Position numbers and translations under genes: made by a program. Below are positions 1,686 through 57,724 of a stretch of DNA of 64,000 nucleotides, piece after piece. This DNA is from Parachlamydiales bacterium. Its GTDB lineage: Bacteria; Chlamydiota; Chlamydiia; Chlamydiales; JAJFMK01. Each line of letters opens with the position of its first letter. The first letter of the stretch is position 1. The DNA is taken from contig CAVXVG010000021.1 in assembly GCA_963765145.1 (NCBI GenBank), positions 32,001-96,000 of the forward strand, in the 5' to 3' direction. The notes beneath the pieces were generated by a model, which worked only from the letters and a program-made list of their open reading frames with translations, made no database searches and had not been told where the DNA came from.

Positions 1686-2131
1686 CGCAACGCGTTTGGA
1701 GCGCTAAACTCCTGTTTAGCTTTGACTTATCAGTGAAAAGTGAAAGCTAAACAGGAGTTTAGCACGGCCTTGTTGCATAATTGTTCGCTGAATAGAAATA
1801 AACGCCCGAAGGGTGTTTTAGGATTGTAGCCCAGGGTAAGCACGAAGCGCGCAACCCTGGGTAAAACGATACATTAAGGCGATGCACCCACGAACGTGGG
1901 TGCCGGGTATGTGGTCAGGCAAAAGGCAATCATCGAGTTTAAGACTCATCCAGCACCCACTTCGTGGGTGCCATTTTATGTGTTGCCTAAAACCCAGGGT
2001 TGCGCGCTCCGCGCTTACCCTGGGCTACAATCCGAAAACACCCTTCGAGCGTTTATTTATTTCTCACGACACTCACCACCCAGAGAGGTTAATTATGCAA
2101 CAAGGCCGTTTAGCACTCCAAACGCGCTGCG
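1686..2131. mobile_element. Nested palindromic element: outer arms + hairpin module + inner IR + REPIN-like cargo A
   Basis: Ends CGCAACGCGTTTGGAGCGCTAAAC / GTTTAGCACTCCAAACGCGCTGCG; inner IR at 1765-1782 and 2091-2108; cargo arms at about 1796-1862 and 1992-2058. Confidence 0.85.
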
Positions 2132-2147
2132 AAACTTGAAACCCCTA

Positions 2148-4076
2148 TCATTCATTTATAAACGAGTCCAACTCTTTCATTATTTCATCCAAAGCTTTTT
2201 CTTCGGCTTCAGATAGTGGTTCCCCTTTTTTTGGAGCGGAGGATGTCTTTACTTCTTTGAACTCTGTTGCTGGCTGAAGTTCGGCTTTTTTCTTTTCTAC
2301 GATTTCGTATGTTGCCTTCATTGCCCCCGGAGGCAATTCTTTTGGCTCATTTAGCATGATTGTTTCCTGAAGGAGCTTATCAAGCTCATCTTCATGGAGA
2401 GACGTAAATTCCTCCGTCAACTTTCCAAAAAGTTCTCTCTCAGTATCTGGAGGGCCTTCTTCTACAGGCTTTTCCTCTGCTTCTGCTTTCTTAATTTCTT
2501 CAGATTGCGATTCGCTTGGAGGGGCTTGCTGCCCGAGAAGCTCTCTCAAACTGGTCGCCTTTTCTCCTGTTGCCTTTTCCTCTAAAGCAATGAGAGCCAT
2601 GGCCTGTTCCTTAAACAACTGAGCCTGTTCAGGGTGTTTTCCTATCATCACAACGCAAGTTGCAAATTTCTCTCTAATTTCTTGAGATACGAGCCCTTTC
2701 CACGCCTCTTTTAATTGCGAATCAGTAACATTAAATTGCGCTATGTTTCGATTTGCTGCATCTATATTGATCTTCGTCTCGGCAGCTCGCAACCCTTTCG
2801 GCTTTTGCCGCCCTCCCATATCAAAATATCTCTGAACATCGCTTATTTCGTCTGAAAGTTTCTTCACCTCTTCCTGCATGTTGGTAGCCCTTCTGACAAC
2901 GATTTTAGGAATTGGCGCAGGCTGATTAGCTTCCTCCGCAAGGGTGTTCAGACCCTCTGCAAGCCTTTTTTCAAGTTTTTTCGATGAAATTCGACCATCT
3001 AATATATTTTCCGCCCCTTTCCGAACACTGGATGACAGCGAGGAATCGCTCCTTTGTGTCGATGTGTCGCTAAGCTTAGCCTTCAAACTTTCAATATATG
3101 TTTTGCTGATAGGAATCTCTCTCCCCTGTTTCACATTCGCAATCATTGACTGCAAGTCGAGCCTTTCCTGGGGATTTAGTCGCTTAAGCGCCTCTAGCCG
3201 CCCATCTTCAGAGATTCCTTCAAACATCGACTTCAATGCATCTCCTGGAAGAATCACCTTTTCAGATTCCGCTTTAAGTTCAGCCTCTAGCGCAGACGCA
3301 GTAAGCCGTGGTATAATATCCTCCTCATCAGCATCAAGTTTGACGGAAGGTTTGGGAGGTCCTCCCGACACCTTTTCTTTTGCTATAACCGGAATGACAT
3401 TCCCGTTATCATCAATTTTTACATAGTTAACAACACGTTGATTGACTCGCTCTGTTTTTCGATTACCTCCATCTCCGTCACTGGTACTGACAGAAAATTT
3501 ATATCCTCCCCCACCTTTAATTACTTGTTTTTCATCTACAAGTATCTCAATGTCATCTTCAAAATCTTCGGCCTCTGTTGGCCTAACATATTTGGCATAT
3601 GATGGTTCTTTACTAACTAGATGCCCTTGATAGTCAACCTCAACCTTCCCTTCTCTGATGAGCCTCTCGACATGAGACTCCTTTTTGCCGCTCGCCATGT
3701 ACATCTCGACATGAGACTCCTTTTTGCCGCTCGTCATGTCCATCTCGAGAGAACCTTTGTTCAAGCCAAAAGTTCTATCAAAAAGCCCTTTGACACTCAT
3801 GGTGAACTCTTCGAAATGCTTGGAAGCGATCGTTGTCCCTTTTTCCTTCAAGGAAGTGATAGTCCGTCCAAAAGATTTCAGTGCTTCACCCGCTGTCTGA
3901 AAGCTGCTTTGCGACTTCTCAAACTTACCATCAGGAATGGGAACATCCGATGGAGCGCCATGGGTGGATGGCTGACTTGAAGCAGCGCCATGAGTGGATG
4001 GCTGACTTGCGTCGTGCACGTGCCCTGCATCACCCAAATCTTTTGGAGGAAAACCGCTATTAAAAGACATAAACAC
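2148..4076 (-). CDS. Hypothetical charged/coiled-coil protein with short tandem duplications; candidate secreted effector
   Basis: 642 aa ORF; SQPSTHGA x2 and EMxMxSGKKESHV x2 near the N-terminus. Confidence 0.75.
   Translation of the reverse strand: MFMSFNSGFPPKDLGDAGHVHDASQPSTHGAASSQPSTHGAPSDVPIPDGKFEKSQSSFQTAGEALKSFGRTITSLKEKGTTIASKHFEEFTMSVKGLFDRTFGLNKGSLEMDMTSGKKESHVEMYMASGKKESHVERLIREGKVEVDYQGHLVSKEPSYAKYVRPTEAEDFEDDIEILVDEKQVIKGGGGYKFSVSTSDGDGGNRKTERVNQRVVNYVKIDDNGNVIPVIAKEKVSGGPPKPSVKLDADEEDIIPRLTASALEAELKAESEKVILPGDALKSMFEGISEDGRLEALKRLNPQERLDLQSMIANVKQGREIPISKTYIESLKAKLSDTSTQRSDSSLSSSVRKGAENILDGRISSKKLEKRLAEGLNTLAEEANQPAPIPKIVVRRATNMQEEVKKLSDEISDVQRYFDMGGRQKPKGLRAAETKINIDAANRNIAQFNVTDSQLKEAWKGLVSQEIREKFATCVVMIGKHPEQAQLFKEQAMALIALEEKATGEKATSLRELLGQQAPPSESQSEEIKKAEAEEKPVEEGPPDTERELFGKLTEEFTSLHEDELDKLLQETIMLNEPKELPPGAMKATYEIVEKKKAELQPATEFKEVKTSSAPKKGEPLSEAEEKALDEIMKELDSFINE
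3666..3748. repeat. In-frame 39-bp tandem duplication
   Basis: ctcgacatgagactcctttttgccgctcg(c/t)catgt(a/c)cat x2. Confidence 0.9.
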
Positions 4077-4327
4077 CTCTCAATTCTTCCTTTAGTTAAG
4101 AGCTTTTTCTTAAACTTCATATAAAGACGGACGCTTCCTCATACTAAGGCACCTTCCCTCTTATCTGCTGTATCTCCCAGACTTTAAGGGGGTCGGAAAG
4201 GAACGAGGGTCAGACCTGGCATCCGGACAAATGACATGCGATAGAAAAGGGTCAGAGCTAGGGGATTGATTTAAGCAGTTTTGGAGCCCTTCAGAGCCAT
4301 CAGATCTTGCCCTCAATAACAGTCTTC

Positions 4328-56264: not shown

Positions 56265-57364
56265 TGAGACTGATTTTGCATCGCATCTATTCGTTGTTGG
56301 TTAAAGAGATTCTTGCTGTCTGGCGAGATAAAAAAAGCCGACTCACCCTCATTGTCCCTCCTATTGTCCAGCTGGTTATCTTTACCTTTGCAGCGACTCT
56401 TGATGTCAAAGATGTCCCGATAGGCATCCTTAACAGAGATAATGGAAAGCAATCATTTGAGCTTGTGCAACGGTTTGTCGGTGCTCCGACCTTTAGTAAA
56501 ATCACCTATTTACAAGCAGTGGAAGAGATTGCCCCTTTTATCGATCACCAAAGAGGAGCAATGGTAGTGTCGATTGATGAACAGTTCTCAAGACAACTCC
56601 TAAAAAAGGAAACAGCCCAGGTCCAATTGATCTTGGATGGAAGGAAGTCGAATACCGCACAAATCATTGCAGGATATGCCAGCACTATCATTAATGATTT
56701 TAGCAGCGACTTTACCACAAGTTCTGCAGCCCTTTTCCCCCGTTATTGGTACAACCCCAATCTCTATTATTATTGGTACAATATCCCTTCCCTTTGCGGT
56801 GTGATCACGATGCTGGTTGGCTTACTGATCACAGCCCTCTCTGTTGCACGAGAAAGGGAATTGGGGACTTTTGATCAGTTGCTTGTCTCTCCCGTCTCTC
56901 CAAGTGAAATCCTCTTTGGAAAGACATTACCGGCCATTTTAATTGGAATGTGTGAAGCGTCGATCATCCTTTTTGTGGGGGTGCTGCTCTTCCAAGTCCC
57001 CTTTACCGGGTCTTTCCTCCTCTTCTATGCAAGCCTTCTGCTTTTCGTCACCTCTATCGTCGGCTTTGGACTATTTATCTCATCGCTCTGTTACACCCAG
57101 CAGCAAGCGATCTTAGGCACTTTTGTCTTCATGAGTCCGGCGGTCCTGCTGTCAGGGTTTGCCACACCAATCGAAAACATGCCCGAATGGCTTCAAGTCA
57201 TCACTTACGCCAATCCTTTGCGTTATTTCCTGATCGTTTCTAAAGGGATCTTTCTAAAAGCGATGCCATATCATATTGTGGCGCATACCATCTGGCCTCT
57301 TATCCCCATCGCCATCATCAGTCTTTCCCTCGCCGGCTGGCTCTTCCGCAGCAAACTCGACTAG
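56264..57364 (+). CDS. ybhR: ABC-2 permease (YbhR-like)
   Basis: LDGRKSN, SVARERELGTFDQLLVSP, PIENMPEWLQ. Confidence 0.85.
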   Translation: MRLILHRIYSLLVKEILAVWRDKKSRLTLIVPPIVQLVIFTFAATLDVKDVPIGILNRDNGKQSFELVQRFVGAPTFSKITYLQAVEEIAPFIDHQRGAMVVSIDEQFSRQLLKKETAQVQLILDGRKSNTAQIIAGYASTIINDFSSDFTTSSAALFPRYWYNPNLYYYWYNIPSLCGVITMLVGLLITALSVARERELGTFDQLLVSPVSPSEILFGKTLPAILIGMCEASIILFVGVLLFQVPFTGSFLLFYASLLLFVTSIVGFGLFISSLCYTQQQAILGTFVFMSPAVLLSGFATPIENMPEWLQVITYANPLRYFLIVSKGIFLKAMPYHIVAHTIWPLIPIAIISLSLAGWLFRSKLD

Positions 57365-57420
57365 AGAGCTCATTGTAAAATTCGATACGCAAATTATGCC
57401 ATGAAAGGAGAGAGGATCTG

Positions 57421-57724
57421 TCGCGAAGCGTTTGGAGTGCTAAACGGCCTTGTTGCATAATCCTGCAGCCCTTCAGGCTGCCAAATAAATTTTCGTCCTG
57501 GACCCGGGGCGTTGCCCACGGGCTGTTGCAGTTTTGGCCTTTCAGGCCAATGAAAACGTGTATAGAGGTTTTCCGGCTGAAAGCCGGATAGTTGCAACAG
57601 CCTGTGGGCAACGCCCCAGGTTAGGGTAGAAAATAAAGATGGCAGCCTGTAGGGCTGCCGGAAACTCGAAAGATCTCGAGACAATTATGCAACAAGACCG
57701 TTTAGCACTCCAAACGCTCACGCG
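57421..57724. mobile_element. Nested palindromic element without hairpin module, REPIN-like cargo B (inverted relative to 18754)
   Basis: TCGCGAAGCGTTTGGAGTGCTAAACGGCCTTGTTGCATAAT ... ATTATGCAACAAGACCGTTTAGCACTCCAAACGCTCACGCG. Confidence 0.9.

Follow-up and report, generated by a model that had tools for sequence, protein, structure and literature searches.

REP doublets, IS903-like ends and variable interiors in the nested palindromic repeats of a Parachlamydiales genome

The stretch of DNA considered here (the window) is 64,000 nucleotides long and covers positions 32,001 to 96,000 of contig C21 in a Parachlamydiales bacterium (assembly GCA_963765145.1, here G000; 37 contigs, 2.68 Mb, 85% complete). 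The nearest transposase relatives likewise point to a probable uncultured host in the Chlamydiota. The window carries palindromic repeats packed inside one another. A reading made from the sequence alone had divided them into an outer arm (O), a hairpin (H), an inner arm (I) and various palindromic cargos. These "Russian dolls" are a real feature, and they are known kinds of mobile element, stacked most likely by targeted insertion. The preferred reading, to which a probability of roughly 0.7 is given, is one of layered insertion: doublets of a repetitive extragenic palindrome (REP) hold pairs of ends of an IS903-like insertion sequence (IS) at a fixed position, and these ends enclose other REP doublets and are likely moved with them as units. 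New here are a REP-specific IS903-like clade at one fixed REP position and the unusually bare shells, which would swap their cargo. The nests reach up to four layers in G000 and five in G001, a congeneric closed genome in a single contig.

Module searches of G000 gave 302 matches to O, 209 to H and 137 to I, falling in 210 clusters, which is far more than chance would give. A profile of the I end built from these matches finds 148 ends in G000 and one in the shuffled genome.

The O-H-O' arrangement is an inverted REP doublet (a REPIN), present at about 160 loci. In aligned unoccupied copies, O and the 5' arm of H make up one REP, which consists of a tail and a 7-bp stem with a 4-nt loop; the rest is its inverted repeat. 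Fully paired stems make up 169 of the 221 that were scored and occur in five different stem sequences. In the second commonest stem variant (22 copies), five of the seven positions pair. Since O and half of H form a single REP with compensated stems, O-H-O' is ruled out as a shell with H as its cargo. The module boundaries first drawn were thus wrong, the 9 nt that separate H from I being duplicated target. Folding gives z -16.7 for the unoccupied doublet at window position 14002 and z -24.4 for the composite at 1686, both far better than shuffles.

Nearly all O loci (154/160) overlap crudely called intergenic regions. Syntenic flanks exist in G001 for 50 of the 151 O-bearing intergenic regions, and 49 of these have no O match above threshold, one of the 49 holding a decayed copy by eye. 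The O sites are in this sense specific to the lineage. Every I-end-bearing site with a syntenic region in G001 (9/9) lacks the I end there. Several of the syntenic gaps in G001 hold another REPIN family, so that the same gaps bear different repeats. A genome from another family, G147, has a 177-aa Y1 gene flanked on both sides by O arms, and its enzyme carries the class-2-type motif Y---NP. A homologue 55% identical to it occurs in G001, with no O arms seen. On contig C24 of G000 (30391-32100), an O-REPIN is tandemly duplicated together with a gene of about 650 bp, and the middles of the two gene copies are divergent.

The I module is the 17-bp end of a resident IS903-like element of the IS5 family, and the shell is not a single new element. 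A hunt for copies with a transposase between such ends found three, on C2, C25 and C29. The full element is 1.1 kb long and has I-like ends, and each copy has an end at the REP position used by the shells. Its transposase (316 aa; C2:100-1050) matches PF13737 (E 2e-30) and NF033579 (296 bits against a cut-off of 140). We take this parent element to belong to the IS903 group. Members of that group usually have terminal inverted repeats of 17-18 bp, a 9-bp target duplication and little target specificity, the last being a usual trait and not part of the family definition. The parent has ends and target repeats of this type, and its homologues have the same ends and 9-bp repeats. The full copy with both flanks preserved lies between 9-bp direct repeats. 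The usual lack of target specificity does not hold here, as the REP site is fixed, in this clade only.

Most I ends lie at that site. Among the 145 ends away from contig edges, 97 adjoin one of two REP junctions (match threshold at least 16/24; background 1.9e-4 per position), 16 match the 9-mer only and 32 match neither. The ends form 55 pairs, three of which are the full IS. Direct repeats matching at 8-9 of 9 positions flank 27 pairs and inverted 9-mers flank six; 20 show neither and two meet a contig end. In the inverted class, a left-arm junction is joined to a right-arm junction. Tobes & Pareja attribute the hybrid repeats around ISRm22 to recombination or adjacent deletion (PMC1525189), and the inverted class, which includes window position 57421, can be explained in the same way.

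At four sites, both copies of the target repeat carry the local variant 9-mer. Six copies of one 279-bp shell are 99.6-100% identical; they lie in both orientations and at three different 9-mers. Recurrence of one shell with repeats that track the local variant is what independent DDE insertions of the shell with its cargo would leave. It is thus likely that I...I' is a non-autonomous unit which the resident transposase moves in trans. Such shells resemble MITEs, the miniature transposable elements with inverted repeats, in being non-coding, in their resident-IS-like ends, in their target duplication and in their near-identical copies. They do not have one conserved interior: seven REPIN families are found inside, and the inner flanks of the 148 ends fall in 54 clusters.

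The first description offered either a non-autonomous shell or repeats that serially target each other. The second option is supported. The first applies to I...I' (and to the J and K elements described below), which are non-autonomous with variable interiors; it does not apply to O-H-O', which is a REPIN and the target. All four module orders reported for the window (O-H-O', O-H-I-cargo-I'-O', O-I-cargo-I'-O' and O-H-cargo-O') are borne out. The O tail is present at each of the 11 intergenic sites named; only six of these are composite or complete, and at the other five (6814, 24396, 38049, 46082 and 52559) the O tail is alone or decayed, without H or I. The features, in window coordinates and with the strand where one applies, are as follows.

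1686-1765: left part of an O-REP doublet, with REP, spacer and inverted REP hairpin; it ends in the first 9-bp target repeat (1757-1765).
1766-2107: I shell of 342 bp with IS903-like 17-bp ends (1766-1782 and 2091-2107) and a family-C REPIN inside (about 1801-2053).
2108-2133: second 9-bp target repeat (2108-2116) and the remainder of the O-REP tail.
4328-4411: left part of an O-REP doublet.
4412-4564: K shell whose ends are asymmetric, with a short core duplicated in the REP tail; a family-E hairpin lies inside.
4565-4584: O-REP tail resuming beyond K.
6812-6830, plus strand: lone O tail remnant, followed by decayed hairpin arms.
14002-14096: unoccupied O-REP doublet (REPIN), one long hairpin of -50.5 kcal/mol as DNA.
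18637-18716: O-REP doublet, right arm variant.
18717-18961: half shell with one I end (18717-18733) and a family-A REPIN (18754-18961); no second I end and no O'.
18964-19230, plus strand: IS-like remnant adjoining the A REPIN, putatively IS481-like; a similar start occurs at C36:84130.
24393-24417, minus strand: lone O tail remnant.
38049-38071, minus strand: lone O tail remnant overlapping the 3' end of a phosphorylase gene.
40604-40684: left part of an O-REP doublet, ending in a 9-bp target repeat.
40685-40863: I shell of 179 bp with a family-B REPIN (40719-40831); four more copies are 96.6-97.2% alike to a reference copy.
40864-40890: second 9-bp target repeat and O tail.
46082-46115, plus strand: decayed O-REP start.
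52545-52574, minus strand: lone O tail joined to what is likely a shell end of K type, by comparison with C2:100400.
57421-57445, plus strand: O tail and left-arm junction 9-mer.
57446-57699: I shell of 254 bp with a family-A REPIN (57461-57662); the 9-mers on either side are inverted and not direct.
57700-57724, minus strand: right-arm junction 9-mer and O tail.

The composite at 57421 is a hybrid of a left-arm and a right-arm insertion that has lost the middle of the doublet. The earlier statement that no cognate transposase was recognised in the window is nearly right. One DDE transposase frame (457 aa; PF01609 match at C21:31223-31795), with a paralogue on C32, spans the left edge (window 1-350), and the cognate transposases are on other contigs. 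No Rfam family was matched anywhere in the window.

Among the homologues scored, fixed-site targeting is confined to a small clade. Genomes and metagenomes yielded 127 homologous transposase loci, 71 of them with a scorable end. Two loci at 72% identity occupy the same REP position, and the other 69 of 69 are not REP-adjacent, many of these being copies within the same genomes and hence no independent cases. When 29 distinct proteins are placed in a tree, the three REP-adjacent transposases group together as a clade (support 100/99). A scan of the phylum found at least four of 400 genomes positive, with two candidates scored per genome, and the full IS sits in the same REP site in four genome records. 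G147 carries both the full IS and a 156-bp shell. No O match was found in G002 and G003, both of which are fragmented assemblies. In Stella vacuolata (loci L056-L058), a distant IS903-like element is present in three copies, all of them enclosed by the arms of another palindrome, perhaps an independent gain of REPIN targeting.

The congener G001 has no PF13737 match. It retains IS ends that have decayed, and its O-REP holds two complete I shells, one enclosing an A REPIN and the other an intact 150-aa Y1 gene. The Y1 gene lies in a five-layer nest (G001:C1:106684-107800) made up of O-REP, I shell, A REPIN, M ends and the gene with long inverted arms. The M ends, for which no partner was identified, are presumably IS186-like. 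In its accessible portion, PMC2266710 gives no mention of IS186.

The case of G001 bears on how the nests spread. They may travel chiefly as whole units: a few old IS insertions would have become fixed in REPINs and been amplified by Y1/RAYT copying (RAYT, REP-associated tyrosine transposase) and gene conversion, with the I ends as passengers. The two complete shells of G001 share an identical one-base mismatch between their 9-mers, which copying of the whole O and I unit fits better than two fresh DDE insertions, and the genome that holds them has no PF13737 transposase match. Single and often clipped I ends beside many REPINs point the same way, and the TnpA-REP enzyme of E. coli can cleave more than 400 nt from a REP and carry out strand transfer (PMC3333891). 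As the chief mode of spread, this account is nevertheless unlikely, because a single 279-bp shell occurs in both orientations at three target variants with matching repeats, and because four genome records have the full IS at that REP site. Whole-unit copying and shell transposition probably both act.

The mosaics might instead be assembly chimeras between short palindromic repeats. Several of the 37 contigs of G000 have such repeats at their ends, frameshifts in homopolymers point to noisy long reads, and the source reads were not found, the best-matching run holding 7% of words. This explanation is highly improbable. The O-I junction is also present in the one-contig congener and in two other families. 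Contigs from X2 and X3, sequencing runs of two other studies, come from related strains and show the same junctions with other interiors, and the target repeats track local variants. Recurrence of the same junctions in other genomes and in the contigs of two other studies means that the architecture is not an assembly artefact. Single half-shells could be misassembled. One X3 contig joins across 1599-2239 and one X2 contig across 43405-43568; since both have unknown letters between, they are not counted as empty sites.

Inside the I shells are other REPIN families, which mostly live free and three of which have flanking Y1 genes in G000. The loci of each family were counted by BLAST over natural copies in three classes, which are given here in the order inside an I pair, beside a single I end and in no I or J shell. 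Family A has 25, 7 and 16 of 48 loci; B has 11, 8 and 37 of 56; C has 4, 3 and 16 of 23; D has 3, 2 and 52 of 61; E has 4, 4 and 47 of 55; and F has 5, 1 and 11 of 24. In these counts K shells are not subtracted, and A and F may cross-match.

Cargos found mostly outside shells, and a co-occurrence no greater than shared intergenic preference would give, had been named as signs that would speak against a shell. The first is seen, as 179 of the 267 cargo-family loci are free of I and J shells. The second is not seen for A, B or C. Regions bearing an I end make up 85 of the 1329 intergenic regions (6% by count, 11% by length), so that 6-11% of cargo loci would be expected to share one. The observed fractions are 29/45 for A, 19/55 for B and 7/22 for C, and D (7/59) is at background.

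On C21, C24, C5 and C28 there are Y1 genes with A, F and B arms beside them. By the motif signatures of PMC6006769, the A and F enzymes look like subclass 1.2 (Y---Q--HH) and the B enzyme like class 2 (Y---NP; NF047646 above its cut-off). No Y1 gene was found for families C, D or E in G000. A Y1 gene of 323 aa on C29 (103900-105200) has TIRYT/subclass 2.1-type terminal repeats.

The flanks between shell end and cargo are diverse. In the 25 A shells, flanks of 11 classes (assigned greedily) occur in 14 pairings, as recombination across near-palindromic cargo would give. Certain inner flanks resemble decayed E arms from an earlier cargo. Family-E cargo adjoins the shell end directly, and family E also occurs free. 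Many O and E REPINs bear one I end about 33 nt outside the repeat, often lacking its first one or two bases. No empty shell of abutting ends was found among the 210 clusters. On C26 (256308-257298), an I shell has its A cargo amplified to five tandem units.

Alternatively, the shells could be dedicated to capture or packaging and actively collect REPINs and Y1 genes from the chromosome. In favour, almost every one of the 52 non-autonomous pairs has an interior derived from REPINs, this is seen for three end types unrelated to each other (I, J and K), and G001 has a Y1 gene within an I shell. Such a system is very unlikely to exist, given that the flanks examined have no donor locus, that most cargo loci are free and that the interior of the G147 shell shows no obvious REPIN. 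The Y1 gene of G001 lies in an M shell inside an A REPIN inside I, and it probably arrived secondarily.

The same hairpins are struck by further elements. The J ends belong to a second DDE element, whose transposase (381 aa) has its best match in an IS1182-like model, under every cut-off. A complete J element is found once, in a nest of O, I, B and the J IS at C27:207181-208900. J ends form 20 pairs, of which 15 have exact 4-bp repeats; most sit in the B hairpin's loop and some in that of the O hairpin. Their interiors are family F in ten cases, family D in six, other sequence in three and the IS in one.

The K shells, as at window position 4328, have asymmetric ends in the O tail. Eleven copies share one end, mostly around E-type hairpins of different sorts, and G240 has a K-like shell with a different cargo. 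The two IS110 elements of G000 were excluded as the partner of K, as their ends differ. No K ends were seen in G001 or at one IS110 locus of G240. The two IS110-family elements, with five copies and one copy, themselves sit at fixed positions in the O tail. The five-copy element (G000 C18:60082-61700, C27 and C29) has a non-coding right end of about 400 nt that could hold a bridge RNA, and the single-copy element lies at C25:31095-32617.

The mechanism proposed for these observations has several steps. The abundant REP doublet would serve as the landing site for IS903-like ends, and the resident transposase would move I...I' shells with their cargo as units. The route by which interiors are acquired is inferred. 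Interiors may be gained or swapped when a REPIN moved by Y1 inserts between IS ends and the previous interior is then deleted, and they may be shuffled when shell halves recombine across near-palindromic cargo. The O-I-cargo-I'-O' order would arise by recombination or adjacent deletion between left-arm and right-arm insertions. Y1 enzymes may also copy whole nests or remove REPINs with end pieces; the ability of TnpA-REP to cut far from the REP means that they could both insert REPINs into shells and excise them in this way. J (DDE ends in hairpin loops) and K (asymmetric ends in the REP tail) are likely to act alike, with other transposases.

Several observations weigh against layered insertion as set out above. 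The shell end is one or two bases off the ends of the resident IS, and two of the three IS copies are frameshifted, perhaps through long-read error. A clean repeat is missing from 20 of the 55 pairs, and 38 I ends are single. The mismatch common to both complete shells of G001 also belongs here. Searches of G000, G001 and one G240 IS110 locus did not find a K transposase, and no Y1 gene with O arms was found in the 85%-complete assembly of G000. Among the 16 largest of the 54 flank clusters, there was no donor locus for the A- and B-type flanks and no match to the IS interior. No intermediate with cargo entering a shell was seen. The 156-bp I shell of G147 has no obvious REPIN, so that cargo need not be a REPIN.

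Each ingredient is of a described kind, and the findings extend current views without overturning them. REPINs and their RAYT/TnpA-REP Y1 transposases are known (bioRxiv 10.1101/2021.07.10.451892, PMC6006769, PMC3333891). O-H-O' and the cargos are likewise extragenic, high-copy inverted REP doublets, and matching-arm Y1 genes exist for A, B and F in G000 and for O in G147. The genome differs in having at least seven families in 2.7 Mb, many of them enclosed by DDE ends.

ISs that target REPs include IS1397, ISKpn1, IS621, ISPpu9/10, ISRm22 and ISNm1106, from the families IS3, IS110, IS4, IS256 and IS5 (PMC1525189), and modular non-autonomous parts of a REP-targeting IS110 are also known (PMC12288879). 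The element described here is like them in inserting at one fixed REP position with a target repeat. It differs in that it is IS903-like (PF13737), its sister clades use unrelated sites and most of its copies are end-only. In addition, I, J, K and two IS110 elements all strike a single REP here.

Mobile insertion cassettes (MICs) have IS ends around unrelated interiors, and MIC231s are moved in trans by the cognate transposase (PMC6199540, PMC3129680). Mosaic TIMEs (miniature elements, derived from Tn3, with inverted repeats) also have IS ends around unrelated interiors (PMC4133298). The shells share this layout. However, MICs carry genes and a conserved stretch by the left end, whereas the shells retain only some 17 bp and have non-coding REPINs as cargo. 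Those of G000 hold REPINs (one a nested IS), and one G001 shell holds a Y1 gene; flanks like those adjoining the IS ends occur only in the three IS copies.

In N. meningitidis, RAYT copies are tied to IS1106 fragments, and an IS5-family transposase has been proposed to move them in trans (bioRxiv 10.1101/2021.07.10.451892). The Y1 gene of G001 is a similar case. It differs in that the IS903-like ends on its two sides are complete and have a near-perfect 9-bp repeat, in that it lies within five layers and in that there is one copy. The literature searched held no REP-specific IS903-like clade and no shells that consist of ends alone around REPINs that can be exchanged; such elements could be listed in ISfinder, in subscription journals or in the supplements of Tobes & Pareja and of Di Nocera, which the search did not cover.

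Other observations concern the rest of the window. A protein of 1534 aa with PARP-like catalytic, ankyrin, AAA and TPR domains is encoded at 47922-52526, and other TPR-repeat genes adjoin it. A zeta-toxin-like Pfam match (PF06414, E 2e-13) lies at 14588-15202. The intergenic, hairpin-bearing region at 43405-43568, which the X2 contig mentioned above joins across, has high contig depth in X2 and X3.

These nests provide a worked map of REPINs, MITEs and ISs that use each other as targets in one genome. The clade of 316-aa IS903-like transposases gained fixed-site REP targeting and its sister clades did not, which offers a comparison for the evolution of target specificity in DDE enzymes. With a Y1 gene inside a complete shell, the idea that IS5-family enzymes mobilise REP transposases in trans can be tested directly. 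A broader proposal is tentative and more doubtful than probable: end-only shells of REP-targeting DDE transposases may be a second vehicle for REP systems, taking REPINs and sometimes a Y1 gene to safe REP sites within and between genomes, with the I and J transposases reading hairpin structure as well as sequence. If this were true, it would explain the patchy presence in distant lineages of REP/Y1 systems that are supposed to be vertical and non-jumping. The small IS903-like clade would then be a compact, naturally occurring integrase with site specificity that accepts any cargo placed between 17-bp ends.

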